A stretch of DNA of 62,238 nt, the filler included. It is 13 parts of 13 records of this genome, joined end to end, with 100 filler letters (N's around TTAATTAATTAA, not from the genome) between each part and the next. Parts side by side here need not be neighbours in the genome. Positions count along the whole stretch, not along the records: positions 17,115 to 25,704 come from SRR15195285_10510; 12 more parts are not named here. The stretch is one strand, 5' to 3'. Positions 10,321-55,545 of this stretch are shown here, in pieces. The notes beneath the pieces were generated by a model. It was given only the letters and a program-made list of their open reading frames with translations. It was not told the DNA's origin and made no database searches. Within the stretch, counting starts at the first letter, position 1, and every line of letters starts with the position of its first letter. A program made the translations under genes and the position numbers.

Positions 10321-12792
10321 TATTCGGCGTTGATTATCATAGCGATCATCTTCATGAATGTCTTTTTGGCTATGGTAATGACTTCGTGGGAAAACCTTGA
10401 CCAGCTTGATGAGGAGCACGAATATCTGATCCCTGTGTCGCAGACACTCCTCGGCCATGATCTGCCGATGATGCTGCACATACCAACATCCATCATCACC
10501 GATCTCATCAATGACATGCCAGCGCTTGTCGATGGTCACGAGAAGGAAGATATGACACCAGAGGAGCTAGAGCAAGTGATGGAAGACGCTAAGGTGTCGG
10601 AAAAACAGCAGACAATCATTTCCAGTTGGTTCTGGGCTCATCCGACAACGGAGCAGATGCTCGCGTCTTCACCGTCACAAAGTGACGACGTTTACGCTGC
10701 ACCGATGCGTAGAGCTCCGCGGAACCGAAAACACAGGAGGAATTTGTCAGAAGACATGGACACTCTTCGTCAGATTTACGTCGAGTCCGAACATGACCGT
10801 GATCCCGCAGCAAAGCCGCGAAAGTGGCTTGTGGCTGAGCTGCGCAACATGCGACAGCGACATGTTTGGATCCAAGAACTGTGTCATTTCATACTGTTCT
10901 CGGTGGTTTACGTACTTGTCCTTTTCCGGGAGCGAGACACGGCGGCGATGCACGCCATAAACAGATTAGTGGAGCAATCTCTCGCTGGTCTAGAGAACAA
11001 CGCGGGGATTGATTTCAATAAGATTGCAATCATGGATGATGTCTTCACGTGGCTAGATGAAGCGTTCATTCCAGCAATTTACGATGACTTATGGTATAAT
11101 GGTGATCGCAAGGAGCTGATCAACCAACACACGTTCGGTCCTGGCCATACGAGAATGATCGGTGGTTGGCGCATCCTACAGAACCGCTATTCAGAGAATG
11201 GGACCTCGTGTTATGTCGGGCGTTTTCACCGGCTGCGCCCAGTGTGCGTGACAGATGAACTCGACAAACTATCCTTTGGGCCTGGTGTCGGCAACACCAT
11301 CGTCTCATCAGACCCGAACGATGACCCTGCAATCTTCAGTGAGGTTTCTCAAAGTTTCAAGTACGCATGTGACCAGCCACTCGGGCGTGCCGTTGGGAGC
11401 AAAGACTGTGGGTACATGCTCCATGCGACGTTTGCCAACAACTCCGGTATTATGGAACAAGCAAAAAATAAGGTGACAATGCTCAAGAAGTATCGATGGC
11501 TTGACAGACAGACTAGAGCGCTGCGGATCGGTATGACGTTGTACAATGATAATATGAAGCGCTGGATTTCTGTCGAACTGATTCTCGAAGTCAGTCGGGC
11601 AGGCGGCGTCAAATCGAGCCGGTCGGTGGATGTGCTGCACCTGTCCCCCTTCGACTCGCAGGGTTGGACTGCCCAAGCGTCCTTTGATTTGATACTGCAA
11701 ATATGTTTCGTCATACTCACGGTGGCGTACATCCGTGATGTGGCATACAAGCTCAAGCATGCCACGACGGCAACACGAAGGGCCCGATTTCATCACAACA
11801 CAATGTGCCACCCAGCACAGTTCGGGCTCGAACTAACGTGTCTTGTTTTATCCGTTGCTGTCATCATTATGTGGATATATTTTTTGAGCATGGATTTTAG
11901 CAGGCTTCATGAGTTTGGGCTTTCCGGAGAAGAGAAAGGAGCGGATGCCAAGGGTTATATATACCCGGACGTAACCGCAGCAGTCGACTGGGAAATAAGT
12001 TGGACTAGTCTGAATGGTGCAAATGTAATGCTGCAAACGCTGCGTGGCATCACATATTTCCAGCTCAGCAAGTCAGGTAGCCGGCTGATGGGTGCAGTTC
12101 ATCGATCTGGGCCACAGCTCGCAAATTTCATTCCCATTTACATGGTGGTAATATGTGGTTTTGCTTTCTCTGGCCATCTCATGTTTGGAATTCGGGACAG
12201 CGACTGGAGTCTCTTTGCAAACGCTTTCTACAACGTGTTCAATATGCAGGTGAATCTATTCTCTGCGTTCGAAGTGTACGATAAGTCACGATGGTCCGTG
12301 TTCTGGATCTACACCCTTATGGTGCTCTCTGTCGTAATCCTCACAAATGTGTTTGTAGCTATCATTATGGCTACTTGGGACGAGATTGGTGAAGAAATTG
12401 ATGCAAAGCAGCACGAAGTCGAACGAGACCTACGGAAAGACTGTCAGCTTCTGCTTGTCCATTCATCAGAATGGAAGAAAGCGGCAGATGCGCTCGAAGC
12501 GTCTACCCAGCAGTTTTTGACTGAGACCGAGGTAGTGAATATCATCCAGCCCGTAGTCCAGCAGCACTGCAAGCCAATCTTGGCACAACTGTGGGACCAA
12601 CGTGATCAGGATGGTGTGAGGAGCATAGTTCAGCCAGCAGCATTGCTGTCTGCAAGATCGCAGGCGCCTGCTGCACGCGGGAGCAGCTTTGACACCCCAC
12701 ATAGTATGGAGGGCGACGACAACGGCGCGAAGAACCTGGAGGATAACCTTGCGGCAATATCTTTCTCGCCGCCAGCACATCAGCAGCCATAG
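10321..12792 (+). CDS. Polycystin (PKD2/TRPP-like) cation channel, 5'-truncated, apparently with a second upstream channel repeat
   Basis: S1 (ELCHFILFSVVYVLVLF), polycystin loop motifs FTWL...IP.IY, IGGWRILQNR and WLDRQTRA...TLYN, then S2-S6 ending ILTNVFVAII. The N-terminal IFMNVFLAMV looks like another S6. Confidence 0.85.
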   Translation, partial: YSALIIIAIIFMNVFLAMVMTSWENLDQLDEEHEYLIPVSQTLLGHDLPMMLHIPTSIITDLINDMPALVDGHEKEDMTPEELEQVMEDAKVSEKQQTIISSWFWAHPTTEQMLASSPSQSDDVYAAPMRRAPRNRKHRRNLSEDMDTLRQIYVESEHDRDPAAKPRKWLVAELRNMRQRHVWIQELCHFILFSVVYVLVLFRERDTAAMHAINRLVEQSLAGLENNAGIDFNKIAIMDDVFTWLDEAFIPAIYDDLWYNGDRKELINQHTFGPGHTRMIGGWRILQNRYSENGTSCYVGRFHRLRPVCVTDELDKLSFGPGVGNTIVSSDPNDDPAIFSEVSQSFKYACDQPLGRAVGSKDCGYMLHATFANNSGIMEQAKNKVTMLKKYRWLDRQTRALRIGMTLYNDNMKRWISVELILEVSRAGGVKSSRSVDVLHLSPFDSQGWTAQASFDLILQICFVILTVAYIRDVAYKLKHATTATRRARFHHNTMCHPAQFGLELTCLVLSVAVIIMWIYFLSMDFSRLHEFGLSGEEKGADAKGYIYPDVTAAVDWEISWTSLNGANVMLQTLRGITYFQLSKSGSRLMGAVHRSGPQLANFIPIYMVVICGFAFSGHLMFGIRDSDWSLFANAFYNVFNMQVNLFSAFEVYDKSRWSVFWIYTLMVLSVVILTNVFVAIIMATWDEIGEEIDAKQHEVERDLRKDCQLLLVHSSEWKKAADALEASTQQFLTETEVVNIIQPVVQQHCKPILAQLWDQRDQDGVRSIVQPAALLSARSQAPAARGSSFDTPHSMEGDDNGAKNLEDNLAAISFSPPAHQQP

Positions 12793-17114: not shown

Positions 17115-20100
17115 TTCGTGTGAAGAGCAGATTGCTATGCAGGGTATAGTGGCGCAAGACTTTGCAGAAATGGGCTTTCCTGCCGACTTTGCATCCGTAG
17201 TGTGGCTCGGGCAGTTTGGAGAGTCGTGCTGCACCGACTACGCCCCCCCATCATTCGAAGGGTCCTGCGACTTTGATGTTGACGTCTATGTGAGTGACCC
17301 TGTGCTCTTGCGTCTTTTTCAACTAGACGATTGCCTCATGGCTTGAGATGACATTCGTGGCTGACTCGCGTTTATGTTGGTGTGTAGAACGACATTGTGG
17401 TGTGCGACGCAGATGAGGAGTGCGATATGGACCCTCTGATTGCGCAGCTGACCGTGACCTGTCTCCAATGCTTGATTGACAATGACAGCAGCAGCTCGGG
17501 CGTGCCGCCGATCGAGCCGTGCCTGTCTGATCGTTGCGAAGGTGCTGAGAACGACTGTGATCCACTGCATGCCCTGTGCATTGCCACCGGTCCAGGGACG
17601 CATGAATGTCGCTGCGCCCACGGCTGGAACACTACAAACGATGGCCGTACCTGTCAAGACATCGATGAATGTGCAAGTACTCCGTGTCAAAACGGAGGGC
17701 ATTGCTACGAGTCTTCTTGTGCGAGCAGCACATATCCGGAAGGCACACCATGTGATCCCTCCTTGCCGGGGGAGTCGGGTGTCCCAGTCGGAGATTATCG
17801 TTGTGAGTGTGCACCTGGATTTGCAAACGGTCAGTGCGCAGCCGGTTGGGACGCACATAGCGTGATGAGGAGCCATTACTTCGAGCTGTGTACGCACACC
17901 CATGGTGGCTTTTGTGACGTGGACATAAACGAGTGCATCAGCAACCCATGCCAGAACTCTGCAGAATGCTTCGATTCCCGAGCAGGTATTGAGCGCGATA
18001 TTATCACAGATGTGTCCGCATCTGCGTACAAGTGTGCCTGTCAGCCCGGTTTTGCAAACGGTGTGTGCAATTCAAGCTTAAGTCGGTATGAGACTGCGTG
18101 CAGCGTGTCCGAGAGTACGGCATCTCCCATCCTGAACGGAAATTGTAACATGGACATCGACGAGTGTTCAAGCACTCCGTGCCAGAATGCAGCTGCGTGC
18201 GCTGACTCCTCGACGATATCAAACATTAGCTTTGATGCATTCAGGTGCACCTGTAGAACCGGCTACGCAAGCGGATACTGTTTGCATAATTTGATTGACG
18301 AGTACACGGTTCTATGTGAAATGATGGAGTCCATCGCTCTGCCTTATGGCCAAGGACTATGTCAAGTCGACATAAATGAGTGTGATAGCAACCCGTGCCA
18401 GAATGGTGCTGTATGCTCAGACTCAACAACTGACGCCACGGTTTCTGTTTCCGCGTATCGCTGCACCTGTGCAGATGGTTTTGCGAGCGGCACGTGCGAG
18501 TATGCATTCCTTCCAGACTATACGGATGAGTGCACGATACTCGACACTGCGTCAGCTGCTGTACCAGCGACTGGCAACTGCGAGCTTGATGTTGACGAGT
18601 GTTTGAGCGACCCGTGTCAGAACGGAGCTGCATGCATAGACTCGAATAGCAACAGCACACAGCCCGGGAATGCTTACGAATGCGTTTGCCCTGCGGGGTT
18701 TGGCGATGATAACTGTGACCGGGATATTGATGAATGCAGCAGTACACCCTGCATGAACGGAGGCATTTGCGCTGAGTCAAATGCGAAAGATTCCGTCACC
18801 ATTGGGTCTTTTCAGTGCACGTGCAGGCCTGGTTATGCGAGTGGCGTGTGTGAGTACCAATTCATCACCGAGTACACCGCAGAGTGCACGATTACTGAGA
18901 GTAGCGAAAATTCCACCCGCACTGATGGCAACCGTATCACTGTTCTTCAAGGAAGATGCGAGATTGATGTGCACGAATGCAGCAGCAACCCTTGCCAAAA
19001 CGGAGGTCTGTGCGGCCAAGACTCTGCTGGAGATGACGGTACTTGCGCAACCCCGAACGCTTACAGTTGTGACTGTCCGCCAGGGTGGTTCGGGCAAAAT
19101 TGCGAGATCAACAACCCGGTGTGCTCTTCGGAACCATGTAAGAACGGTGCTCATTGCACCGCGTCTGGGAATTCTTACAACTGCACATGCACCCCGGGGT
19201 GGACGGGCCCAACTTGCACAAGCAATGTCGACGATTGTGCTGAGCAGTGTGTCAATTCAGGCGTGTGTGTCGACGGTATCAACTCGTACTCGTGTGTTTG
19301 TGCTGCTGGATACACAGGCCTCAATTGTGCTGAGAATGTTGATGAGTGCATCTCAAACCCATGCCAGCACGAGGCTATATGTGCCGAAGGGGTAAATGCG
19401 TATTCATGCATCTGCGTTGCCGGATTCGACGGTGACAACTGCGAAGTTGATATCGACGAGTGCTCCAGTGGGCCCTGCCAGAACGGGGCGAATTGCATCG
19501 ACTCTACGGTAGTCGGCGTGAGTGTGCCGTTTGGAGCATACCGGTGCGAGTGTGTGGTCGGATACAGTAGTGGAAAGTGTAACTATGTCAATGAGGTTTC
19601 TGGTGGTCCCGATGACTATGACGAATTGTGTAGCATTGATTCGTCGATGCAAGATGGTCTCCTCGACGGTGCAGGTAACTGCGCTATGGATGTAGACGAA
19701 TGTGTCAGCAACCCTTGTCAAAATGGCGCTGAGTGCAGTGACTCGACAGTTGATCGAAGGTTGCAACCTGGCGGATATCGATGTGCCTGTATACAAGGAT
19801 ATAGCTCCGGTATGTGTGACTACTCTCTCCGTACCCCGACTTACACAGCAAGCTGCACAATTGCTCTATCATCGGGCATGGACGCGGCACTAGGGATGGG
19901 CAATTGTGAGGTGGACGTGAACGAGTGTGCGAGCAGTCCATGCATCAACGGTGCCACTTGCTCGGACTCAACTGATGCCAGTAGTGGCGTTGCAATTGGT
20001 GCTTACGCCTGCAACTGTCTGGATGGTTTCGCAAGTGGTGTATGCTCGTATGAGTATATTCCACAGTATGCGGACCAGTGCAGCATCCAGAGTTCAACCC

Positions 20101-23100
20101 TTCCTGGTCTATTCGCTGGTTCTGGGAACTGTGAAGTGGACGTCGACGAGTGTGCCAGCACTCCGTGTGCCAACAGTCAGCCATGTGTCGAGAGTGGCTC
20201 CGTTGGAGCAGACATCCCGATAAGCGACTTTAGTTGTGACTGTGGCAGATTCTGCAGAACTAACGAGTCAGAGATCAAGCCGGAACAGGAATGTGACCCA
20301 AACCTCGGGGACAGCTCATTGCAAACCACGACTGGCGACGAGTGTGAGATCGTAGCGTCCTCGTGCTATGAGGACGAAGAGGCTCAATGTGACCCAGTCA
20401 ACTCCCAGTGCATCAGTCTCGGTGCTGGCTCATTTGAATGTGTCTGTAACGACGGATGGGAGCCAAATGGTGGCACAGAAGGGACAGTTTCTACCGGTGG
20501 CTGCATTGATATTGATGAGTGTGGCTCAAGCCCGTGTCAAAATGGTGGAATATGCACGGAGTCCGCATGTGCGCCTGGTGAAGTCTGTTTAGCGGGCACT
20601 AGCTCCAGCAGCAACCCACCACTTGGGAGTTTTCGTTGCACCTGTGCTGTCGGCTATGCAAACGGCGTCTGCGCAGACGGCTGGGACGCGAAAGCGCAAG
20701 TGATGACAAACTGGTACACACCAGATTGCACCAGGAGCACTGGGGGTGCCTGTGATATTGATATCGACGAATGTATGAGCGCACCATGCATGCATGAGGC
20801 GACGTGCGCAGAATCAGGCACCACTATGGACATTTCCATAGACGCATATAGGTGCACATGCCTGACTGGTTATACCAACGGGGCGTGCGATTATAACCGG
20901 GACGGTTTTGTGAACAGAGCTGACGCATACTTGGTGCAGTATACGGAGCGTTGCACCGTGATGGAGAGCACGTCGATGGATGGCAACTGTGATGTTGATG
21001 TCAACGAATGCGATAGCAATCCATGTCAGAACGGTGCGGAGTGTCTCGAGTCTAGCAGCCCTGCGGTGGCGGTATCGCTCCACGCATATGTATGCATGTG
21101 CACGCCGGGTTTTGCGAACGGCCTGTGCGGCTACACACCACTCCCAGAGTACAGTGCACAGTGCAACGTATTGGAAAGTGACGACGGCAGCTATGCTGGT
21201 AACTGTGATATTGACGTTGATGAATGCGCCAGTAGTCCTTGCCGAAATGGAGCGACATGCACTGAGTCCTCGGTGGACTCAACAATTTCGTTATGGGCCT
21301 ATCGATGTACATGTGTTGCTGGCTACAGCAGTGGAAAGTGCGACTACAGTTTCATCGCTGAGGTTGCAACCGGTTGCTCTGTGGCTGAGAGCAGTGTGGC
21401 GCCGATATCGGGCGCAGGCAACTGCGAGATCGATGTGGACGAGTGCTCAAGCAGTCCATGCGCAAACAACGCCACGTGCACTGAGTCCCTCGTTGAGCCG
21501 AGTGTATCGCTGCACGCGTATCAGTGCACGTGCTTGCCTGGCTTCGCAAACGGTGCGTGCAGCTACACGTTCATATCCGAGTACACAGATGAGTGCACCG
21601 TGCTGGAAAGTTCTACAGATGAAGTATGGGGCGGCAACTGTGATATCGATGTCAACGAGTGCAACAGCAGCCCGTGTGTGAACGGCGCGAAATGCTCGGA
21701 CTCTGTCAGCGAGCCGGGCGTGTCATATCACGCGTACCAGTGTACATGCCAAGCTGGTTTTGCCAACGGGCAGTGTGACTACGAAGGTGTGAATGCAGCA
21801 TACGCGACGCGCTGCTCGGTGTTGGAAAGTAGCGCGAGCTTCGAATACAGCGGCAACTGTGATATCGATGTTGATGAGTGCATAAGTACCCCGTGCAGTA
21901 ATGGTGCACTCTGCAGGGAGTCTACCAGCCATCAAGCGATTCCAGCAAACGTGTACCAGTGCTCTTGTGTGCCTGGTTTTGCCAATGGTCTCTGTGAGTA
22001 CGACTTTTTGCACGGCTCCGACACGGGCACGGTCTCAGAGATCGGTGGAATGTATGCCGATGAGTGTACCGTCGAACACTCGCGCGCCAATGATTTCACT
22101 GGTAATTGCGATATTGACATCGATGAATGCGTCAGTAGTCCCTGCCATCACGATGGAACATGCTCTGAGCTTGAGATGACCATCGAACAGCGTGGGGTAT
22201 GGGACGGCGAGCATGGCCAGTGGACCAACCTTGCAAAGCTGTACAGCTGCAACTGTACGGGCAGCTGGATATCTGGCTCAGACTGTGAGGTTCGTGGAAC
22301 TTTCTCGTGGGCGTGCGAACGCGGCCAAATGCCCGTGGACCCAGCCGTAACTAACTGGGACCTAGAGCCTCCTCGCATAATGGAGTGTAGAGAATGCGAG
22401 CCTGGTCGCTACTCACCAGATGGTGTGCGGTGCAGAAAGTGCTCTGACGTCGCACCGCTAGTCACTACGACCTGCAGCAGAGTGACGAACCTTCGGGGCG
22501 TGATTTTGCGAGAAGAATGGCCCTGTACTCGGCAGTACACGTGCATCAAGTGTCCGCAGGGCCTTGTTCCAAACAACCCAGACAACGCGACCCACTGTGT
22601 GAGCGCCATGGACTCCAACGACACGTCCCTGACTAGCCTAGGAGACTCTATCGCTCCAGTCGTGCCAGTGGCCACACTAGACGTAGCCATCAGTGGTGAA
22701 CCCGACGTGGATGCGATCGTGCAAGCTCTAGCAAATACAATGGGCGTAGATATCGCTTCACTAGCCAGCAAAGAAGGAGGTCCTCCCAATCTAGTGTGCG
22801 TGGCAAAGTGCTGCGATGACTTGACGCAGACTGGGCGATTGCCTGATGATGATCCGGACCCGCAGGAGGTGCCAATCGACTGTGCCTGTGACGGCAGCGC
22901 TGATGGCAACCAGCGCGATCCGTTCGACACCTGCGTATCGGTCAGGGCAGCCGGTAGACGCCGGGCCATGCGGGCGGTACCCCTTAACACTCTACTAGCT
23001 GCAGGCAATATGACTCGACGTTTGCAAGATGGAAACGCCCGAGACTTCTCACTGGAATTTGTCATTCAGGATGATCCACTCGCTCAGATAGCTATCGACA

Positions 23101-25704
23101 CCTTATCCGAGCAGTCGCAATATGCTCTATCTGGTATCGATGGAGCTTCCATCGGCGATGTGGTAACCACCACAATCTGTCCGGAAGGGAAGGTTCGTGC
23201 CGGTCCCAACGTGCTCTGCCAGCAATGCCCATATCCAGACTTCACACCGGATGCGGTTGCATGCCGGTCATGCCCAGATAGCCAGGTGCCGACAGACGAT
23301 GGTAATGCACTTGCACCGTTTATTGTGTCTGTGCCCAGCATTCGAATTCGTTTGGATCTCACCCATGTTGGCTGTGTACTGTACACTGGCATTGAACCGT
23401 TATGCAGGCAATGACTGCCGCTGTGCAGACGGCTGGTACAACAGCAGCACTGGCTTCGTTACTTGTCACGACGAAGGCGTTAGTGTTGATCACATCCGTG
23501 ATTCACCAGAATTTCTTTTCGCCGCACAAGAAACTACTGTGGGCCTAGGACCAGGGATAGGGGAGGCTGTTTACGGGACACAGTGCAGCCGATGTCCAGG
23601 CAACTGTGTCACGTGCGCCGACGGAATCATTCGCGTCAAACCAGGTTACGCGCTCAACGCGCGTCAAGCAGCCGAGAAAAGTGCGCTGCATCCGTTCAAG
23701 TCAAGTCAGTCAATTTACAGCATTTTCACTGGTGACTGTGCTCCACCTTCGCAGGGCCGCTAGATGCAACATACGGTATGCGACATGTGTTCAAGTGCAC
23801 AAATGTCTCTAGCAGCGACCAGTCGATTGAATGCCTCGGTGAAACCGAGCGTCAATGGGATGGGGAGATCAATGAAACTTTACTGGAAGGCCAGAACGGG
23901 ATGGAGCAGACAGTGTTCATGTTCAGCCAGTGTGACAACTCTAAAGAGCAGTGCGACAAAAATGTTTGGTGGTTGTGTGATGACAAGGATGAACATTGCG
24001 TGGACCCAGAGGAGACACCCAAGCTGTGGTGTGGCTTAGGCTACGAAGGCCCACTGTGTAGTCAGTGTGAGGATGGCTATGGTCGCAGCGGTATCGCACG
24101 CAACAACGCCTGCACGCTGTGTGGGTGGTTCATGAAGACATTTGGGTACTATGTGCTGGTTCTTGCTGGTATAATTTTGATCTATATGCTTCATTACCTG
24201 ATCGGATGGTTTGCCGTGACAAAGGCTGATCTGGCGCCTACTAAAGCCAGAATTGGGATAGCATTGGTCATTTGCAATTCGGATTACGGAAACCAGCAGG
24301 ACAGCTGGCCAGAACTACCTGCTGCTGAAGCAGATAGTAAACTCATTGTCACTAAGCTCAGATTGTATGGCTACGATGTCATACACGTTGTGAATGGGAC
24401 CAAAAAGGTGATGGACGATGCTATCAAATCATTCAAGCTGAAGTTGAAAAATGAGTCTAAGTACCAGCCTTACAAACAAACCCACCCTGGTTTGGCTCCG
24501 GGCGAGGTGGCAGCGTTAATCTTTTATGTGGGCCACGGATGTCAGGTCGATGGCGAGAATTTTCTGGTTCCTTCAAATCATACTGACAGGCACCAACACA
24601 ATCATCTTATTCCTGTGGATGATGTGCTCAAGGCCGCAAGACCGAAGGGTCGAAAGGGTCCAACGATCTGCATTCTCGACGCCTCTCATCCGAAGGAGCG
24701 CGGCCCACTGGTTCCGATGAAGGACGGCTCAAAGAAAGACATGTTCCACTGTCCTCTAAGCAAGGGGGTGATGTTGGACCCAGTCTACCTGAATGCAGAC
24801 CCGCCCGACTCAGACAAGCACTTAAAGGCTTCTGCCGAAGCTGGCGAACACATGAAAGGGGTAATCGATCAAGGTTGGTGCTATGAAAGAAGCGCTCTGA
24901 TTGACTATTGTAAGCGCACCAAAAAGGCATCTAACGGCGCAATTGTCGGCAACCCTCGAACTGGTGAGCCGATCGAATGCAAATACATTGCATCTGAGGA
25001 CAGGTTGGTGCTCGACATCACCCCACACGAAGAGCGACGGCAACATATTCTCGAGTGGACCCACCAGAGTGCGCTCAGTCCCATCGATGAAGATAGTCTG
25101 GACCCCGATACAGTTGTAGTTCTGGCTACAGAACCGAACCAGTTTGCGCCGACTACGTCCACTGAAGACGAAAATGACTTCAATTTTCACGCCGGCCGCC
25201 CCTACGAGCCATCCCGGGGATACCCGAGGACGTTCGCGACCATGCTCACAATGCGAAGAGGGGTAGATGAAGTACTGAGCCTGATAGCTACAAGAGTCTC
25301 AGCAAAGACCCGAAATCTTCAACTCCCGCAGCGCACAGGACAGCTGAGCATTCGGGAGACGGAATACTGGGTTCTGAACAAGAATGGTGACGGATCACTG
25401 GTACGCAAACGGTGGACCAACGGATTCATCATAAATGGCAAGCTTCCAGTCGATCCGACTCGTGCAGGCGGTGTGCAATACAGCCTGCCTGATGATGAGG
25501 ACGAGGAAGAATACGGTAATCAAGTGGTTGACGGAGCCGACGGTGGCATTGATGGTGAAGATGTTGATTTCGGTCGGTCGACATTTGCTGCTGCAATGAA
25601 TTCCGGGATCTCCTTCCTCTCCACGCTTGTGCCGTCGTTTCGCATTGCCCTGGGAATGATCCAGATTATGAGCGGAATGCAGTTTGCGTTTTCCATTCAA
25701 TTTC
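17115..25704 (+). CDS. Giant receptor-like protein: about 24 Ca-binding EGF repeats, Cys-rich stalk, TM, caspase-like (C14) domain with inserted U-box, further TM; truncated at both ends
   Basis: In-frame introns 17290-17387, 23302-23407 and 23681-23754 join ORFs 17137, 17397, 23197 and 23778 into about 2,770 aa. D[IV][DN]EC.S.PC.NG repeats; TM 24141-24218; IALVICNSDY, FYVGHG and ILDASH; FHCPLS..M.DPV / G.CYERSA / NPRTGEP. Confidence 0.85.
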
Positions 25705-25804
25705 NNNNNNNNNNNNNNNNNNNNNNNNNNNNNNNNNNNNNNNNNNNNTTAATTAATTAANNNNNNNNNNNNNNNNNNNNNNNNNNNNNNNNNNNNNNNN
25801 NNNN

Positions 25805-27117
25805 GGCGGCGGCGGGGGCGGCGGCGGCGGCGGCGGCTGCATCATCACTCTGGCCACAGACACATGCTTCAAACAGTGTTCTCACTTGGGTAGGACATGG
25901 TGTTGGTCATGGTGCTTGCTCCGGTAGAAGCCTGGGATCGTGACGTCCATACGCGTGTGGTTGATCGCAGGAAGAAAAGCTGCCGCCAGAGCAAACACAG
26001 CGACGCTAGAGGCGTGCAGCCCTATCGTGCGTGACACGATAATGATTGCAAGCAGGTGGATGTACTCCCCAACAAGGTACTCAAACGGGTGCTCGTTGAT
26101 CGCATCCTCGATGCCGTTGCTGGGGACATGCTGCTTGTGATGGTGTTTGTGCACCCATGCGTATCTGAGCGGGATCAGCAGACAAAGCGCACAACACGCT
26201 GAGACTGACGCAGAGGCTGCCACAGAGCAGCAGGGTACAGCTGACGAGTACGCACAGCCTACGGTGATGAAGAGCACGATGAAAGAAAGAGTAGAAGAAG
26301 TCGTAGACAATGAACAGCAGTGGCGTCGCGAGGACCGTGTTGAACAGTGACATCTCGCTCGGGTTCCACATGACGTGCTTCTCCGCCGTCCACATATATC
26401 GCAGGGTGTGGTAAAAGAACACCGGTACATACATCTTGTTGAACCTGCACTCAGGAGCCAGCAATGGGATAGCCCACGCAGACAGCGCATGAGCGTACGC
26501 AGATGATGGCTACAGCATGCATCGGGCACCAAGCCAGCAGGTGTGACGAGGGGCAGGAACCCGGGCAGGCGTACCACATGTACCAAAAGTCGCGGCCGTA
26601 CAGCGCCCCCGGGATTACATGTGGTTTACCACGCGGCGCTATGGGCTCCCATGTCCCAAGGCCTACACTAATTAGGCCTGGTCCAACGCAGGCTGTGGCA
26701 ATCTGTCCAGCAACGGCTGCGACACGCAGCATAAGCAGGGCCAAGGTGAGACGGGCGGTGTGAAGAATGCCAGCCAGATGCGCTCAACACAGAGCGCACC
26801 AAGCAGTAGCTGCAGACTGATTGACCAAGCTGCAAAATGAGATCCGCTCCATGTGCTGCTATCCCATATCTTGACCTCCATGTCCTCCCACTGCGCCACA
26901 CATGACACATGACATCACATTGCCGGTCACGACCCTATTCCGCACCCGCCCACAGTTGGACCGTTGGCGCGTGCTTGTGCGACAGTGCGTAGATAGACTG
27001 TACCTCCCACGTTGTCCTCGTCTCGTTGCCCCTCTCCGTGCCCGAGCGCGCCGCGACACACACAGCAGATACCACCAGCGCCGCTACAGCTGTCCGCACG
27101 CTCGTCCCAGCTGCCAT
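25805..27117 (-). CDS. Fatty acid hydroxylase / sterol desaturase superfamily protein, multi-exon, 3'-truncated
   Basis: His boxes HRALHH, HKHHH, NH and HDQHH plus HPFE. In-frame introns at 26165-26255 and 26445-26574, probable introns near 26720-26799 and 26891-27003, and a final donor at 25885. Confidence 0.85.
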
Positions 27118-27835: not shown

Positions 27836-30025
27836 TTATCGGTGCAGTCCATCCCCCTCTGGTGGAACAATCTTGGTCACCACGACGGTCGTCAGCACTT
27901 TGAGCTTGTCGTCCGCGGTACCCACGACAGTCGTCAGTGGGTTGCACATCTCGTCGGTGCTCGTAGTGGTGGGACTGGCAGCTAGACGGCACTGCGCACA
28001 GTTGCAGAGTGGATCGTGGGCAGCGACATGTGTTTGCATCCGTTGCTTGCTAAATCCAACGTGAATGAACTTGGCGTCATCTTCGAGCAGGCCAACAGGT
28101 TGGTGTTCGTTTACTGGTGGCGACGCCTCGGGAACGGCAGCCTGCGTCAGCAATGTGGCGTGTCGGTAAACACAAGGAAGCCACAACCAATTCACGGTGA
28201 CGCCGACCCAAATCGCCAGAAATCGGAAATCCGGATCCGTCTCACCAATTACAACCACAAGGAAGCCGACGTACAGACCCATTGTCCATGTCCAGAAGAA
28301 CACGTTCAGGTACAGCGGGGCGCAGACATTCGGCGCGTGCTTGCACTTCTTGCAGCCACAACAGATGAGGACGCCCATGAGCCAGCAGCCTCCTGCCATG
28401 GCTCCGAGGACCGGCAGCTCCTGTCGCTGTTGGTGGGAAATAGGAGTCCACTCTCCAGACTCAGACTCTGACTCTCTGATCGAAAACTGACAGGTGGGCT
28501 CCACCTCACAGTCTCCAGCCCAGTGCGTGGCGCCTTCGTTAGATGCACAGTTGCACTGCCCACACGCATCTTCGAACGCAGAACCAAAGCACACGCCTGC
28601 ACAGTCCTTGTCAATCTCTGCGCAACGCTCATCACCGACCTCGGAGACCAGCAGCCCCGGCGTGGTGATCCAGCCGGATCCATTGTTCTCTTGCCACCTG
28701 CCAGCAGCACAGGACGCCGGAGAGTGGTCGCAGTGTGAGTGCCACACCCACGACACGCCAACAAAGTGCGAGCCTTCAGGGCGCTGGTACAGGCACTCCG
28801 TCTTCTGAGCAGCTGGCCCGATCATCCAGACGTACGCGTAACCATCAGGTTGGTAGATCACAAGGTTGTCTCCACCCCGTTCGCGCTGGTAAGTCGGCTT
28901 GCCGTTGCAGCGCGCTTCGGTTATCATGTAGATTCCCGTTCGGTCCTTTGGATTGATGGTGGCTGATGCAGGCAACCCGAACCCTGAGACGCGCACAGCT
29001 TCAGGATACCCCATCTGCAACGGGACCCAACCACCCTCGCTGAACAGGGACAACGGGACCCACCCGCCCTCGCTGAACAGGGACGGGCAAAGGCGCGCAA
29101 TCTCAGCGATGTACGAGGCGCAGACTCCATCCGGATCGATCGTGTCGGGACGCTGCCACACTACAGTGTGGGTCACGCCTGTCTCGGTGTCGAAGCGCTC
29201 ATCTCGCTGTGGCGAACACGTGCTGTCTCCTGCATTGCCCGGTCCGACGCAGCACAGGTGCTTGATCGTGTCGGCAATCGCTTGGTGCTCATCACGCGCG
29301 GTGCATTGCGCGCGTTTGCCCTCATACGCAGTCGTTGCAATCGATCTTGCGACTAGGTTACGGATCCCGAGGTCGACGCATCCTGAGCATGCTTCCAGGT
29401 AGCTTAAGTAGAGGTTGAAGCAGAGGTGCCTTTCTGGGGCTGGCATGCCGTACGGATCCGTGTTGGTCGGCGTGCCGCAGCCATGCCACTCCAAAAAGGA
29501 ACTTCCGAAAAGAGTGAAGATGTTTGCGCACTCGGGGACCATTGGAGCAGCAGCGTGCGTATGAGTGACCCGTGGGCTGGCCAGACAAAACACCATATCC
29601 ACGTGATCCAGGCCGCTCAGAGCCCGGCTGAATGTATCGTTGCCGCTACGACACTGCTCGCTGCACTCCTGGTGGCCCTGGTGATAGGCGCAGTCGAAGC
29701 GCTTCTCTCGCTGGGGCCCCAGCAGCTTCAATACACGGACAGCCTCTTCTGTGAACATCCTTGTGGAAGCCACGCCGTGGCGATCCACTGACTCGTATGC
29801 CTGGCCTTCGCACGACCTGAGCATCTCCGCGATGGTCGCCTGGCATGCGGCGGTGCAGGTGTGCTGGGAACACTCGCCACTGATGGTCGCGCTTCTCGCG
29901 GCTTGGTAGCTGATGTTGCACGCCAACTGGATGCCCTCCTGCGGCGGCCAGAGAGGGTCATTAACAAAAAAGCTCTGGGCTGCGACGCTGTCCCACGCGA
30001 GGGCGATGAGGGGCAGCACGCGCAT
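27836..30025 (-). CDS. Cys-rich cell-surface protein with signal peptide and about 3 C-terminal TM helices
   Basis: Single 729-aa ORF. MRVLPLIALAWDSVAA signal, DCAGVCFGSAFEDACGQC motif, and three hydrophobic segments near the C-terminus. Confidence 0.75.
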   Translation of the reverse strand: MRVLPLIALAWDSVAAQSFFVNDPLWPPQEGIQLACNISYQAARSATISGECSQHTCTAACQATIAEMLRSCEGQAYESVDRHGVASTRMFTEEAVRVLKLLGPQREKRFDCAYHQGHQECSEQCRSGNDTFSRALSGLDHVDMVFCLASPRVTHTHAAAPMVPECANIFTLFGSSFLEWHGCGTPTNTDPYGMPAPERHLCFNLYLSYLEACSGCVDLGIRNLVARSIATTAYEGKRAQCTARDEHQAIADTIKHLCCVGPGNAGDSTCSPQRDERFDTETGVTHTVVWQRPDTIDPDGVCASYIAEIARLCPSLFSEGGWVPLSLFSEGGWVPLQMGYPEAVRVSGFGLPASATINPKDRTGIYMITEARCNGKPTYQRERGGDNLVIYQPDGYAYVWMIGPAAQKTECLYQRPEGSHFVGVSWVWHSHCDHSPASCAAGRWQENNGSGWITTPGLLVSEVGDERCAEIDKDCAGVCFGSAFEDACGQCNCASNEGATHWAGDCEVEPTCQFSIRESESESGEWTPISHQQRQELPVLGAMAGGCWLMGVLICCGCKKCKHAPNVCAPLYLNVFFWTWTMGLYVGFLVVVIGETDPDFRFLAIWVGVTVNWLWLPCVYRHATLLTQAAVPEASPPVNEHQPVGLLEDDAKFIHVGFSKQRMQTHVAAHDPLCNCAQCRLAASPTTTSTDEMCNPLTTVVGTADDKLKVLTTVVVTKIVPPEGDGLHR

Positions 30026-43218: not shown

Positions 43219-46200
43219 GGGATGGAGACGGACTGCTTCACGGCGGCGACCGGCGTGTGCTCCGACCCGGCGCTGAGAAACGATGGTTTCTGCGACGAGC
43301 GGCTCAACTGTGGCGCCCCCGACCCGGATTGCAACTTCGGGGCGCCGACCAGACACCACCCGAACGCCAACCACTTCGGCGGCTTGATTGTGCGTCCAAC
43401 AGCTGTGTCGGACAAGTCCCCGCACACCCCACACTCCGCACACTCCGACCCAGCCACCCTAACCTCAAGTGCAGGGGCGTGGCCTGGTTTCAGCACCGCC
43501 ACCACCCGCTCGCCTGATTTCGTGTGGCGCACGTGCGCAGGTTACCGACACGAACACCGCGCGGATCTTGCAGTACGTGCCCGAAGATCCCAGCCTGGCG
43601 GCAGAAGCAGCCTGTGCCTCTCCCGATGCAGCCGGCGCGTGTACCCCGCCGCTGCAGGTGCCCGACGGGGGTGAGTACCGCGTGCTCACTGAAGACGACG
43701 CTCTGATCGACTTCAAGCTGAACGGCCAGATCGCTGCCGGCACCACATCACAGACAAAGCGTTACCTGTTCGGCATCACATCGAGTACTGCCTCTCACAC
43801 GCTGTATCGCATAGACACCTTGACTGACACGATTGACTCCAAGTCGCTCATCAATTTCCCAGCACGATGGGAGCAGCTCGGTACCCACTCGAGCACCAAA
43901 TGGCGATACAAACTACCAACCAGCCACAAAGCCAGCCACCCGTGCCGCTGCACTAGCTCCGACACGGACTGGAAGCAAGGCTCGGGGCTCCCGTGGCAGC
44001 GGGACGAGAGCGTAGATGGCCAAACCATCACGCTCATTGACGGCAACAGCGACTTTGAGATCCCGTACCGAACCGATGGTAACACAGGTCTAGCTATGAC
44101 CTTGAGCAACGCGGGGGGTAGCCCACTTCAATGGGCTGATCTGGAGACCGCGGGCTGCATCGCGGCTGAGGTTGTTGCTGAAACATCTGCCTGCGGGATG
44201 ACAGCAGCTCAAGAGACAGCGTTCCTCGACACGCACACCGTCAGTTACTACCCGGCTACCACCACAGCTGATGACACCGCCTGTGCCGTCCTCGAGCCCC
44301 GGCTATGCTCGCTTGCCGTCGACGAAAGGTCTGGAACAGCAAGGACCATCAACTACGTCGACATGTGCTCGGGTGCCACAGTCGCCGAGGAGCCGGAACC
44401 CCGACAAATCCCAGGTGGTACGCAAATCGGTGATGCGAATACATGCATCGTGAACGGCTGCTGCTCGTGCACCTATGGCCTGTGCGATGCCGCTATGGCA
44501 GTCGATGCTAGTACCGATACTGCCGACGCGTCGTTTCAGCTGGACTTCACAGACGGTTGGGGAGGGGCCGGGTGGCAAGGAATTCAGCTCGCTCCATACA
44601 CTGACGCTTCGCCAAGACCGACCAATTATGCAGATGGGGATCAAGAGGCAATATTGACCACGTCGGTAAATCACGCTCAACGCATGTACGCTGTGTCTCA
44701 GCCGTACGGAGTCTTCAAATACGACCTGGCAGCAGATGGCACACCCACTTTTCTCGGCACCGTGCTGCAGTGCGAGGACCACCAGGGCAACCGTATGTCA
44801 GGGGCAACAGCCAAGCTGACGATGAATGCCCCCGGCAACGGGCACGCCGAAGGCATGTTCGTAGTGTGCGAGCGGCGTGACAGTGTTAATCTGCCCGATG
44901 CGGCTTACCTCTTCTATTGTGCCCTTGACACAACAAGCGATGCGACGTGGAGAGAGCAGGGACGATGCGCATATGTGGCTGGTGGTGGGCAGTTGTCGGT
45001 CGGCGTCGACGTGCCGGACTTCCAAGGAGGCGCCGATGCTGCGAAGAAGCTCAACAATGAGTTGATCCGCGACGTAGTCATTCTAAACGCAGTTGAAGCT
45101 GGAACCAGCAGAACGTACGATCTCGTTACTGTCGAAAGCCGTGTCCCAACCTCCAAGATGTACAGGTACAGCGTCACCATTAACCACGGATCAACTACCA
45201 GCAGCCCGTCAGTCACTGCTGTCAGCTCTGTCGAGTTTTTGGACGGCAACGACCAGGACCTCAAAGATGCAACGGGTCGTGACGTTTTCGACTTCTGGGC
45301 TGCAGCAGTACAGCCTGACGGCAGCGCACATTTTATTGCCCCGCAGGCACCCCCAGCCGAGCTGTATATCACAGACTATTCCTTCAACGCCATCATCAAA
45401 GTACGATATGCCGCAACGGGCCCCGCCTTAGCAACCGGTGCTAGGATGTTTGGTACCAAGTCAGCGATGGTTCCGGCCGGCGTCCCTATGTTTATGGATG
45501 GTCCTGTGGCAGCACAGAGTTATGTGCACGGCTTTCGCGACTCTGTGGCAGGTCATAAAGTCTACGTCAAGGTAACCGTACATAATATGGCTGGCCAACC
45601 AGCAAATGAGGATGAGGACCAAGCTGCTCACATTGAAATCGCTGTAACTGGACAAGTGTCTATTGGCGGGCAGGACGTGACAGTTGTCATTCCCGGGACT
45701 GTCGCAGCTCGCGACGAGGACATCTACAGCACTGGCTGTGAGTGCACTCCATCTGGAACTCCATCTGGCTGTGAGTGTGCACAAAATGTGTTCTGGGCAC
45801 ATTATGTCGCCACGCAGGCAGGCGTGTTCAGCGCTAGTGCCACGATGGGCCCGTTTGCAGAGCACGTGGTCGGCAGCCCGCACAGCGTAACGGTTGTGCC
45901 AACAGAGGTTGATCCACAGAAGACGCTTGTTACACGCGATGGCGATGCAAATGTACGAGCCGGGGAGGGAGGCGTGCTGCTGATCTCCACATTTGACGAG
46001 TTCGGCAATAAACGGACAGCGGGTCTTCAAACGAGAAAAGACCCGCCTGAGAGGTTCAAATGGTCTCTCAAAACCCAACCAAACGGCATGAACGTAATTA
46101 ATCGTCGCGACACGTATGACCCGCAGGCACAGGTTTCTACCGCGCCTGTAGAGCTGACGGACGCAGAACTCCGCGGTCAGTGCGAAAGGGACTTGCTCAC

Positions 46201-48055
46201 CCTTGAGACAACACCGTACTGGCAAGGGGAAGCTGACTACGAAGTGTTCCGGTCAGGAACGTATCAGTTCCAAATGTTCATGCTGGTGAATGACATAGAC
46301 TACAATGTTTACGTCGATACCGTGGTCGTGCTACCTAGTGAGATCAGCGCCGGCCATTGCACTGCTGAATCTCAGTTTTTTTACCGGGCAGACGTCAACG
46401 AAGTCACTGCCGTCATTTCTACCCCGGTCTCGGTCAAGATTACGCCTCGCGACCAATACTCCAATCCTGTGACTACACCTCAGACATTTGTGATCGACCG
46501 TAAGGCGACTGCCTACACTGGGCCACTGCCGATGGATTGCTTGAACGATGCAGCGGCTGGAGAGTACGATTGCAACGCAGTGTGGACAGAAGAAGCACAA
46601 GAAACATATGAAGTCAGGTTCTACCTAGATGATGGCACCCTCGTCGATGGAGTTGGTGCCGATGCACTTGTAACACTCTCATCAGACGAGCTAGAGGCGA
46701 CAGACACTCTCATTGGCGTGGCATGGCCAGCTGGTGGGGGGGCCACAGGTGTGGCTGAGATCCGTGCAGTCTCTAAGGACGGGACCCCGCCTACATGCGA
46801 TGATGTTGAGAATATAAACATTCTCATCCAGTTTGTGACGGCTCTTGTCATATGCATTGGGCTCGGAATGTCCGTGTGGCTTGCGATGGCGCGCACAAGC
46901 AGCTTCATCCGAATGACATCGCCGGTACTCGGCCAGGTCATCATTTGGGGCGGTGTGATCCATCTCTTCTCGGTACTGCTCTGGACGATCGACCCAGGCG
47001 AGTCGGGCTGGTCGTCAGACGGCTTCAATTTCTGCTCTGTGCGCATGTGGACATTCTCTATGTCATTCGGGATGATATGGGGGACCCTCTCGCTCAAGAC
47101 GTATCGGGTCAAGGAGCTGGTGATGCAGCAGTCAAATAACGCAGCTGGATACCAAGAGATATCCGACTCTAAACTTCTCACATGGGTCCTTCTCATCGTG
47201 TTCTGTGAAATGGTCATTTCCTGCGTGTACTCGTTCTACGACGACGGGCCGCAGTATGACCGGAAGCCTTGCCCTGAGGGTATACCACCTCAAACATTCT
47301 GCGACACCGGGGAGACGTTCAACACGTTTGCAGCAATGCTGGCAGTCTTCAACGGTGCACTTGTTGTTTTCGCGCTCGTGCAGGCTATCCAGACGCGCGG
47401 GGTGCTGGGACAAGCAGTCGGTGGAGGTGACAATGCCGCTCAAGCGCAGAACTCCGCAGCCGCGTTCGTTGAAGCTCCACACATCGGGTTCTCCATCTAC
47501 AATATGGCGTTTACATCTGTCGTCCTGTATCCTGCGTGCGGGCTGATGAACCCCAAAACCAGCACCACCACGTACACGCTGCTCCGGTCCGGTGCATCAA
47601 TATGGTCCTGCTTTATCGTTTTCGTCTTCGTCTTCGGTCTCAAAATCCGGGACAAAAACCAGTTCGACGAACAAGAACGATTGAATCGTTCGCAGAAGCT
47701 GTCGGCCAGGCAGTTGGGTGGTGGACCGTCAAGCTACTCAGATGGTGGCATGCACAGCATGCGCGGAGGCGGACAGGCCCCACCGGGTGCAGGTGGACAG
47801 AGTTACCGTGGCCAGTCGCCCGCGCGCCAGGGTGGTGGCATGAACCCTGCGCGTGTAGGTACGTCCCCTGCGCGCGGCGGCGGCCCCTCCCAACCGGGTC
47901 AACGTGGCCGCTCGCCTCAGCGCGGTGGTGGTCCTCCGCGCGGCCCACCGCGCGGCGGTGGTCCGCCACGAGGCATGTCGCCGCAACGCGGAGGGCCACC
48001 ACGAGGCATGTCGCCGCAACGCGGCCCGCCTGCAGGCGGCGAGAACTGGGCCTAA
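43219..48055 (+). CDS. Class C (7tm_3, GABA-B/Dictyostelium Grl-like) GPCR with large ectodomain containing filamin-type Ig repeats; 5'-truncated; intron 43390-43540
   Basis: IRMTSP...IIWG, CSVRMW...SFGMIWGTL.LKTYRV and EA..IGFSIYN fit the class C 7TM pattern. VGSP.SV.V.P, DEFGN and PRDQYSN are filamin-like. Gly/Pro/Arg-rich tail. Confidence 0.85.
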
Positions 48056-53359: not shown

Positions 53360-53760
53360 GCCCTTTGCTGAGAGTGGTCATACTAAATTATCCGATGGCA
53401 AAGAGCTCGTCTGAAGATGCGCATGAGTGGACATGGCATTTGCATGATTTCCCAATGAATATGATGTGTAACTGGATGACCAATCGATCTGAATTACCCC
53501 CTCTCATGAACACCATGTCGCTTTGCACTGAGACCAACCACTGCATGGTTTTCGCAATCGTGGTTGACAAAANNNNNNNNNNNNNNNNNNNNNNNNNNNN
53601 NNNNNNNNNNNNNNNNTTAATTAATTAANNNNNNNNNNNNNNNNNNNNNNNNNNNNNNNNNNNNNNNNNNNNTCTGATCGACACGTCTGGCGCACGTTGA
53701 GGCGCCGGCCGGTGGTGCCGCCGTGCGTGAGCCTGGGGCGCCGGCGCCTGCGTGGTGGCA

Positions 53761-55545
53761 ATGACCAGCGAGCAGGTGTCGCTCCTGCAGGGCAGCGACA
53801 GTGCTGGTCGCATCCACGTCCAGGGCGACGACGACTGCGAGGCGTCCACACACAACGATGCTTTGGTCTACGCTGAACTGGCAACGGGCCACGGCGACCT
53901 GGCGCCCACAATGCCATCGGAAAGGCACTGGAGCGCGCTGGACTTTGCGCGCATGTGGATCTCCATCTTGGTCAATCCGTCAGGTTACATCCTGGGCGCT
54001 GCGCTGCTGCACCTTGGGCTCGGGTGGAAAGAGGCGCTGCTTGCTGTCTTTGTTGGGTCCAGCTTACTGGTGCTGGCCCTGATCGCCAACGCCGTTGCCG
54101 GAGCGAGGTACGGAATACCCTTTCCTGTGCTGGCGCGGCTATCGTTCGGGTACGAGGGTGCAAAGGTGGTTGCAGTACTGCGCGGCCTGATCGCAATCTA
54201 TTACATCAGTATCAACATGTGGATCGGAGCCGAGGCACTGGTGAAAGGTTACAATGCCGTGGTGGCTCCCAGTACAAGCAGCGGCAGTGGTAGCGACGGG
54301 AGTGGCCCAGGCGATACTGCGGATGCTGGCGACAGCGTGTCCGTCGGCCGGCTCTCTTCATTTGCTGCCTACGCGCTGCTGCACGTCGCAGTATTTGCAG
54401 GCGACGGTATCCGTGCAATGCGTTTTCTTGCAAAATGGTTGATGCCACTGCAGATCGGTGGATTGATCGCCATCATTTCCTGGGCGCTGTCCTCCGTCCC
54501 ACTCAGTGCAATACTTGCAAGCACGAATAGTATGGTAGGACAACGACAGGGTTGGGCGTTTCCGGTGGCCTTGACGACCGTGGTCTCGAGCTGGAGCACG
54601 ATGTCCCTCAACATTGCGGACATTTCGCGCTTCGCTCGGTCACAGCGCGCGCAAGCTGTGGGGCAGTGTGTCGGGTTTGTGCTACCGAACGTGTTGGTGG
54701 CCTCTGTCGGTATCTTTACGACTGGCGCTGCAAGCAAGCTGTACCCAGAGAAGGCCAGTGAGCTGTGGAATTTTGTAACGCTGCTGGAGTTGTGGCCGCC
54801 AGTCGTCTCGGTGGGTGCGGCGCTCATCTTGTCGGGATCAATCCTGAGTCACAACATCGCTGCAAATGTCGTGAGCCCGGCGAATGACCTCGCGAATCTG
54901 TTACCTAATCGGGTCAGTTTTCGTGCAGGTGCATACGGTTCCATTGCGATTGCAGCATGTCTCATGCCATGGAAAATCCTTGCGACACCGGGCGGTTACA
55001 TCCAATCATTTGTACTTGCCTATTCGACGTTCACAGGGGCTATTCTGGGTGTTATGCTAGCAGACTTCTTTGTTGTCCGCCGTGGCGTGTTGGACGTACC
55101 TACTCTCTACCAGGCCCATGGTCCCTGCAAATACAGCTGCGGTAGGCCTCTGTTCCCAATGACTTCGTTGTATTGTGCCACCTAACCTCTGTTCAGCACC
55201 CCTGTAAATTGAGTGCATGTGTACGGTTGCTGCCGCTCTATAGGGATCAATCTCGTTGGTTTCTCGAGCGCACTGTTCGCCGTCGCGCCGTGCTTACCTG
55301 GCCTCTTCGCTCGACTGATGGGGCGGGAACTCGCTGCCTCGGAGACCAGCACATCACCAATCGTCGTGACGCTGTCGCACATTTACGACTGCGCGTGGTT
55401 CTCTTCAGTTGCATTAGCCGCTGCTTGTTACATATTGCTATCGCAGTGCGTGCCCAGCTACCAACAGTTGCCTGCCGTGGGCACACGACGAAAATTGGGG
55501 GGGTCTTTGCCTGACATCATCGTGATTAATGAAAACGTGAACTAA
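53761..55545 (+). CDS. NCS1 nucleobase:cation symporter (uracil/allantoin permease family); intron 55142-55243
   Basis: GARYGIPFPVLARLSFG, WSTMSLNIADISRFARSQ, NIAANVVSPANDL, MPWK, GAILGVMLADFFVVRRG.LDV..LY; about 12 TM segments. Confidence 0.93.

Follow-up and report, generated by a model that had tools for sequence, protein, structure and literature searches.

Introduction

Cell-death and immune signalling depend centrally on proteins of the caspase fold and on U-box ligases, which are normally separate proteins, as in the cases of MALT1 and TRAF6 or of the caspases and the IAPs. In true caspases, the L2 loop rearranges upon substrate binding or dimerisation. Type II metacaspases have an autoinhibitory linker that is subject to cleavage and is not an independently folded domain of another family. 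The U-box architectures known to us carry this domain as a stand-alone, terminal unit beside ARM, TPR, WD40 or kinase modules. Here we analyse a stretch of DNA of 62,238 nucleotides (the window), in which a gene codes for a member of the caspase-like Peptidase C14 family whose L2 loop is interrupted by a putative U-box domain (24744..25064). All positions refer to the window, and all features of this gene are located on the plus strand.

The nearest relative of solved structure is the paracaspase MALT1 (3v4o, 6f7i). MALT1 has kept its catalytic Cys and actively cleaves its substrates with specificity for Arg, whereas the window protein contains a Ser at this position. MALT1 is furthermore a soluble protein with death and Ig domains; its L2 loop contains no domain, and the ligase is a separate protein. 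In contrast, the window protein is a membrane receptor with the predicted U-box in L2 itself. The death and Ig partners of a strict MALT1-type paracaspase were not detected by Pfam in the open reading frame (ORF) of the window, in a longer copy of the same protein (P0162), or in an ortholog (P0163). The ubiquitin ligases (E3s) of the U-box type (PF04564; PUB12 7xed/8hpb, AtPUB14 1t1h, LubX 4wz3) have an order of motifs in common with the insert, namely F-x-C-P-[IL], DPV, G-x-x-Y-E-x-x-A-[IL], P-x-T-G and a C-terminal helix. Like the insert, they lack a set of Cys/His zinc ligands.

The caspase-like fold surrounding the insert

Translation of 24744-25058 yielded a peptide of 105 residues without a stop codon. 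It is identical to the peptide quoted in a first-pass annotation, which had placed a U-box domain in the inter-subunit linker of a caspase fold. The frame around this peptide belongs to an ORF of 23778..25760 that reaches a gap of N's at 25705, and the caspase/U-box segment lies within a single open exon (23755-25704) of a eukaryotic gene. The motif ILDASH is found just 5' of the segment, and DTVVVLATEPNQFA follows 3' of it in the same frame.

In the window, the Pfam family Peptidase_C14 (PF00656) is matched with 45.8 bits, compared to a cut-off of 21.4 bits (E 8e-12). In the relatives described below, this match spans the insert and extends to profile positions 230-231 of 233. An alignment of 103 rows (A2), consisting of the window sequence, 15 relatives and 87 insert-free C14 proteins, served as input for AlphaFold2. 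The resulting model had a mean predicted local distance difference test score (pLDDT) of 85.7 and a predicted template modelling score (pTM) of 0.87; a prediction from the single sequence had a pLDDT of 36.5 and was unusable. With this model, Foldseek identified MALT1 at an E-value of 2.2e-8 and a TMt of 0.72.

The p20-like half of the C14 fold (24240..24719) was assigned by means of PF00656, the HMMER alignment to MALT1, and the model with its structural matches. 3' of the insert, the model contains a strand (residues 291-295), two helices (324-335 and 342-356) and a further strand (364-368), which correspond in the alignment to the C-terminal portion of C14 domains lacking the insert. These elements therefore constitute a p10-like half (25095..25355) that completes the fold. 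According to the model, the protein possesses a complete caspase-haemoglobinase fold including the p10-like part, and the insert is located in the loop following the catalytic strand, which is the inter-subunit linker. Both features, the completion of the caspase fold by the downstream segment and the position of the insert in L2, had been anticipated in the first-pass annotation.

Similarity of the insert to U-box domains

More distant relatives of the window protein (far clade) possess a shorter insert at the identical alignment position. They were collected by searching 1.84 billion representatives exhaustively with HMMER; 193 matches were obtained at E<=0.001 and 13 at E<=1e-10. Four of the eight distant relatives that were scanned passed the gathering threshold (21.4 bits) of the Pfam U-box PF04564, at the same position as the insert of the window. 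The values are 38.1 bits for P0010, 36.4 for P0019, 30.0 for P0009 and 24.3 for P0008, and the matches cover profile positions 3-70 of 73. P0014, P0015 and P0011 remained below the threshold with 19.7, 17.6 and 17.1 bits, respectively; the eighth relative is truncated and gave no score. In the four proteins above the threshold, the U-box match follows the ILDA-x-[HR] strand and precedes the p10-like half.

A hidden Markov model (HMM) was deduced from the inserts of 10 distant relatives, and the window and its close relatives (near clade) were excluded from it. This far-clade HMM matched the insert of the window with 43.6 bits (E 1.3e-15 for one target) in two pieces around 22 unmatched residues. 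The best score among 2000 shuffled versions of the same insert was 6.4 bits. The match of the insert thus exceeds what chance would give.

In a further comparison, a profile was calculated from an alignment of the inserts (A4), which consists of 13 rows and includes the window. All of the 12 distinct PDB sequences that it identified at E<=0.01 are U-box, SP-RING or NOSIP domains. E-values were 3.8e-12 for LubX, 3.9e-7 for PUB12, 8.2e-7 for the SP-RING SUMO ligase NSE2 (2yu4, 9lwj) and 2.8e-5 for AtPUB14 (1t1h), and those of the U-boxes span 3.8e-12 to 6.4e-5. The profile of the whole module (A1) identified MALT1 at 2e-19 and U-boxes at 1.8e-10 to 2e-4. A search of the ESM Atlas with the 120-residue insert of the window alone gave 30 matches, which belong to clusters annotated as U-box (21), U-box/zf-Nse (8) and NleG (1); the top score was 0.92, with 170 of 256 features in common. 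In the AlphaFold2 model, the insert consists of two strands, helix 217-228, further strands and helix 264-275. The pLDDT of this block is 70-95, and the order of its elements fits a U-box.

The match of NSE2 is nearly as good as those of the plant U-boxes. At the positions of the NSE2 zinc ligands, however, the family contains Asp/Gln, Trp, Ser/Asn and Glu, and an assignment as SP-RING/SUMO ligase was discarded because none of these positions is Cys or His. The insert therefore appears to be of the zinc-free U-box type, and a set of Cys/His zinc ligands was likewise not found anywhere in the insert alignment. Residues Leu173, Tyr223 and Pro239 of the window occupy, according to A4, positions of the U-box that presumably contact the ubiquitin-conjugating enzyme (E2), namely those of a hydrophobic residue following C-P, of an aromatic residue or His in the central helix and of a Pro in loop 2. 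Throughout the family, Pro239 does not vary and Pro172 hardly does.

The Pfam matches of relatives, the far-clade HMM, the insert profile and the ESM Atlas agree that 24744..25064 is a genuine, divergent U-box domain, as predicted from sequence similarity. Standard Pfam annotation misses it in the clade of the window. A U-box profile match and the completion of the fold by a p10-like half were thus both found; the absence of either had been named beforehand as refuting the proposal.

Clade-specific loops and conservation

The U-box pattern with one internal insertion of roughly 25 residues that had been described for this segment is correct with respect to the pattern, whereas the insertion comprises 22 residues and a second additional stretch had been overlooked. 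The 22-residue loop (24804..24869) is located between the DPV and GW.YE strands and contains a modelled helix (192-201). It is not matched by the far-clade HMM and is absent from all eight far-clade rows of A4. The second stretch of about 11-13 residues was recognised in the alignments between the P-x-T-G loop and the last helix of the U-box. It corresponds to about 24972..25010, with approximate boundaries, and is modelled as a beta-hairpin (strands 244-250 and 255-258). Both stretches are in frame in all near-clade sequences, and neither of them is an intron. A retained intron was rejected for the 22-residue loop, since the loop region contains only two in-frame GT..AG candidates and both would remove a conserved strand.

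Near-clade sequences share 70% of the residues of the U-box core, compared to 69% for the p20-like and 58% for the p10-like half. The corresponding values are 44% for the 22-residue loop and 49% for the second stretch. The U-box is conserved as strongly as its caspase host. Among clades with a mutual identity of only about 35%, little or no variation is seen in CP-[IL], in the aromatic position of the central helix and in the loop-2 Pro. In a near-clade alignment (A3), three Cys residues in and around the U-box (C171, C214 and C247) are invariant; C214 and C247 are absent from the far clade. The three residues were considered as ligands of a possible, newly formed zinc site.

Several results weigh against the assignment of the insert to the U-box family. 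The Pfam U-box was not matched at E<=1 by the ORF of the window or by its 105-residue segment, and it was passed by none of the six near-clade proteins that were scanned (close relatives or longer forms). The best near-clade match, that of P0004, had an E-value of 0.13 and was limited to the first 18 profile positions. A profile of six near-clade sequences identified no U-box in the PDB at E<=10, and a phmmer search of the PDB with the insert alone returned nothing but two chains of methane monooxygenase, whose E-value of ~0.3 would be expected by chance. The 50 matches listed in a VIA-align search with the whole model, a list that is filled by one large domain, were caspase-fold and other alpha/beta chains and included no U-box, so that this search is uninformative with respect to the insert. 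Moreover, the domain is interrupted by the two extra loops, and a Lys is found two residues after Leu173 of the CP-L motif, at a position which we take to be a hydrophobic E2 contact in some U-boxes. Finally, alignment A2, the input of AlphaFold2, contains a flaw, as MAFFT aligned Cys171 of the U-box with the catalytic Cys of those rows that lack the insert. Because the near-clade searches gave no U-box match, the call for the clade of the window depends on transitive homology and on the lead from the ESM Atlas.

Loss of the catalytic cysteine

In the HMMER alignment to MALT1, the catalytic His is opposite a His of the window protein (codon 24534-24536), and the catalytic Cys is opposite the Ser of the ILDASH motif (codon 24684-24686). 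All 16 family rows retain the His. At the position of the Cys, these rows contain Ser (3), Asn (4), Gly (4), Ala (4) and, in P0015, Cys (1). The same states were seen again in further cluster members from independent contigs. The Asp preceding the nucleophile position is retained. The host fold is complete but it is a pseudo-protease; it is a C14 member by fold and descent, yet a pseudo-peptidase. The replacement of the catalytic Cys by Ser favours a role as scaffold.

Among the insert-free C14 rows of A2, seven also show a Ser in place of the nucleophile Cys: P0006 (592 residues), whose motif is LDASH as in the window, and six others. The exchange of Cys for Ser therefore arises repeatedly in the superfamily. 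The only branch of the insert-bearing family that keeps the Cys (LDACH) consists of P0015 and the cluster members P0193, P0194 and P0196. This branch also has the most degenerate N-terminal motif of the U-box, with C-S-M in place of C-P-[IL] and a Pfam score of 17.6 bits. The combination of a retained Cys with a degenerate U-box hints at a trade-off between protease and ligase, seen in this single branch.

Origin and distribution of the family

A phylogenetic tree was calculated from the caspase columns only, leaving out the insert. It comprised 12 family rows and 30 insert-free rows, and the fragments P0007, P0013, P0014 and P0019 were omitted. The insert-bearing rows form one clade with a support of 95 in the Shimodaira-Hasegawa-like approximate likelihood ratio test (SH-aLRT), and the sequences point to a single origin of the family. 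The Cys-keeping P0015 is sister to the other insert-bearing rows with a support of 83, and this placement is not firm. The outgroup is probably bacterial, judging from the partner domains SH3_3, PEGA, GUN4 and CHAT.

Three of the ten clusters that were looked up include members from Picozoa sp. (EukProt), and the other members are metagenome proteins. All named members of the family thus belong to the Picozoa, an uncultured marine lineage. The arrangement as a whole has been kept as a multi-paralog family. A search for longer homologs yielded one protein, P0154. In P0008 (residues about 300-450), and also in P0154 and P0156, a further large insertion was observed in the p20-like half. It is acidic and helical and shows a weak Myb-like match (E 0.061). 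These paralogs indicate that additional sequence can be accommodated in more than a single loop of this caspase fold.

Gene structure and the protein beyond the gap

According to tblastn comparisons with relatives, an ORF with EGF repeats (17397-23414, 2005 residues), a short middle exon and the caspase exon form one gene. The upstream exon (17397..23301) codes for EGF-like repeats and Cys-rich modules of ~1970 residues, which are presumed to be extracellular; it was delineated from the ORF and from tblastn matches of P0007, P0011 and P0015, which continue into the caspase exon. In the ortholog P0163, 10 EGF stretches are recognised by Pfam. Intron 1 (GT..AG, ~106 nucleotides, about 23302..23407) was placed where the tblastn matches are interrupted, and its boundaries were judged by eye from the bases. 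Intron 2 (GT..AG, 74 nucleotides, 23681..23754) corresponds to the sole donor/acceptor pair with an open junction that a script identified, and this junction agrees with that of P0163. A membrane helix (24153..24209; ORF residues 126-144) directly precedes the caspase-like domain, with a Kyte-Doolittle value of 2.19 in a window of 19 residues. A strong helix was found at the equivalent place in 5 of 5 family proteins examined.

Following the p10-like half, an acidic linker and the beginning of a downstream membrane region were assigned to 25356..25704 from the sequence and from P0162, and the gene is then cut by the gap (25705..25804, no strand), in which a TTAATTAATTAA linker is flanked by runs of N on both sides. 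After the gap, a stretch of GGC repeats is found, and the DNA beyond is part of a different, minus-strand gene.

A copy of the same protein from another source, P0162, shows 1 mismatch in 642 residues. It extends 395 residues past the gap and there contains hydrophobic segments and a RING-like finger (residues about 763-813). This finger scores 24.8 bits for zf-RING_UBOX, just below the cut-off of 25.2, whereas in P0163 (residues 2534-2582) zf-C3HC4 scores 27.3 bits, above the cut-off of 21. The finger lies in a loop of the downstream membrane region, and the full protein thus has two E3-type domains, the U-box and the RING. The topology of the RING loop was assessed by a crude hydropathy count of the helices that separate it from the module, with an ambiguous outcome. 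Downstream of the module, the TRP-like/Flc membrane domain PF06011 was detected in P0015 with 30.5 bits (cut-off 28.5) and scored 19.0 bits in P0011 and 9.8 in P0008. It was not matched at E<=0.01 in P0162, and the gene of the window itself ends at the gap.

Taken together, the gene codes for a giant membrane receptor of a marine protist, whose EGF-repeat ectodomain and membrane helix are followed by the caspase/U-box module and a multi-pass region. The module lies directly beneath the membrane, on the cytoplasmic side of the receptor.

Other genes in the window

Two further genes of the window code for receptor-type proteins. The ORF 10330-12792 (plus strand) matches Polycystin (E 1.5e-15) and the PKD cation channel (E 1e-11) and is of a receptor-channel type, and the ORF 43469-48055 (plus strand, 1528 residues) contains the 7tm_3 domain of class C G-protein-coupled receptors (E 5.4e-25) after a long N-terminal region without a Pfam match. 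An NCS1-type purine/cytosine permease is encoded by 53752-55185 (plus strand, E 1.1e-65). On the minus strand, the ORF 25882-26586 is weakly similar to fatty-acid hydroxylases (23.7 bits, Pfam cut-off 31). The ORF 27836-30025 (minus strand, 729 residues) is not matched by Pfam; a stretch of 11 residues (SLFSEGGWVPL) occurs in it twice in exact tandem, and its C-terminal region is hydrophobic.

Discussion

On balance, we favour the view that a divergent U-box, nested in the L2 loop of a dead paracaspase-like C14 fold, recruits an E2, and that the caspase body acts as its platform. The U-box would bind a ubiquitin-charged E2, and the caspase body might hold a substrate or partner, possibly in the remnant of its specificity groove, or contribute to pairing. 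Since L2, to which the U-box is attached, is a mobile loop, occupancy of the groove or pairing of domains may be coupled to the output of the ligase. As a result, the receptor or its bound partners would be ubiquitinated, which could lead to turnover, endocytosis or signalling.

A real, if minor, possibility is that the insert is derived from a U-box and is no longer a ligase. Both parts of the module would then be pseudo-enzymes and would form a structural or protein-binding platform next to the membrane, which for example docks a partner or holds receptor chains together. The failure of all six near-clade proteins to pass the Pfam U-box, the near-clade profile without a U-box match in the PDB, and the two clade-specific loops are consistent with such a decay. 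The residue two after CP-[IL] is polar across the family, the host fold is itself already a pseudo-enzyme, and the RING-like finger further along the protein, which exceeds the zf-C3HC4 cut-off in P0163, could provide the ligase activity instead. However, the U-box core has been conserved to the same extent as the p20-like half (70% versus 69% identity), and CP-[IL], the aromatic residue of the helix and the Pro of loop 2 are near-invariant, a pattern that would be expected of a selected E2-binding surface.

The retained His also allows for an active protease with Ser as nucleophile, in which the U-box would plug the linker for regulation or autoinhibition, comparable to the long linker of type II metacaspases. 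We regard this as improbable. Sisters that are 54-57% identical to the window protein have an Asn at the nucleophile position and other clades a Gly or Ala, so that this position has not been selected for a nucleophile. Moreover, known C14 proteins with a Cys-to-Ser exchange, such as MCA4 of Trypanosoma brucei, are inactive. Pseudo-orthocaspases with a Ser are reported to be presumably inactive as well (abstract of PMC6426788). It is very improbable that the U-box likeness is due to chance or to an artefact, namely an in-frame retained intron or an assembly chimera. Short GT..AG introns do occur nearby in the gene, the gap is about 640 bp downstream, and the metagenome proteins have probably been predicted without splicing. 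This explanation is already contradicted: the insert is in frame and free of stop codons in every family member that covers the region, although these sequences are 25-67% identical; the HMM score is far above those of the shuffles; both GT..AG candidates would delete a conserved strand and spare the extra loop; and the insert is modelled with a block pLDDT of 70-95.

In a more far-reaching version of the favoured view, which we consider rather doubtful, the module would be a new type of allosteric ubiquitin ligase with L2 as a hinge that bears the U-box. Pairing of the EGF receptors or a peptide in the dead groove would switch on the recruitment of E2. Together with the RING, the protein might form a self-contained unit of receptor, scaffold and ligase, and thus an independent protist counterpart of the animal paracaspase-TRAF6 axis.

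In the full-text literature searched, from whose scope subscription journals were largely excluded, no description of a fusion of C14 and U-box was found, and passages of PMC3417536, PMC5756287 and PMC3734836 contain none. The arrangement places a ligase-type domain in the regulatory loop of a non-proteolytic caspase fold, underneath a huge adhesion-type receptor. If the U-box is active, this would be a natural case of a protease scaffold that is re-used as the substrate arm or the regulatory arm of an E3, and at the same time a compact model for the coupling of loop movements in a caspase fold to another activity.

Comparison with known systems

The loss of the catalytic Cys has precedents in other caspase-like proteins. 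The protease-like domain of c-FLIP (3h13) and bacterial pseudo-orthocaspases (PMC6426788) contain no inserted ligase domain, unlike the family described here. In the pseudo-orthocaspases, the His is also replaced, by a Tyr, whereas it is present in 16 of 16 rows of this family. The type II metacaspases (Arabidopsis MC4 6w8r/6w8s, MC9 8a53) are active proteases, in contrast to the pseudo-protease of the window's family. Compared to known U-boxes, the domain is nested in another fold, and in the clade of the window it contains extra loops (22 and ~12 residues) and scores below the Pfam threshold. By analogy, the module may be functionally comparable to MALT1 in combination with the separate ligase TRAF6, but with both components fused in one chain.

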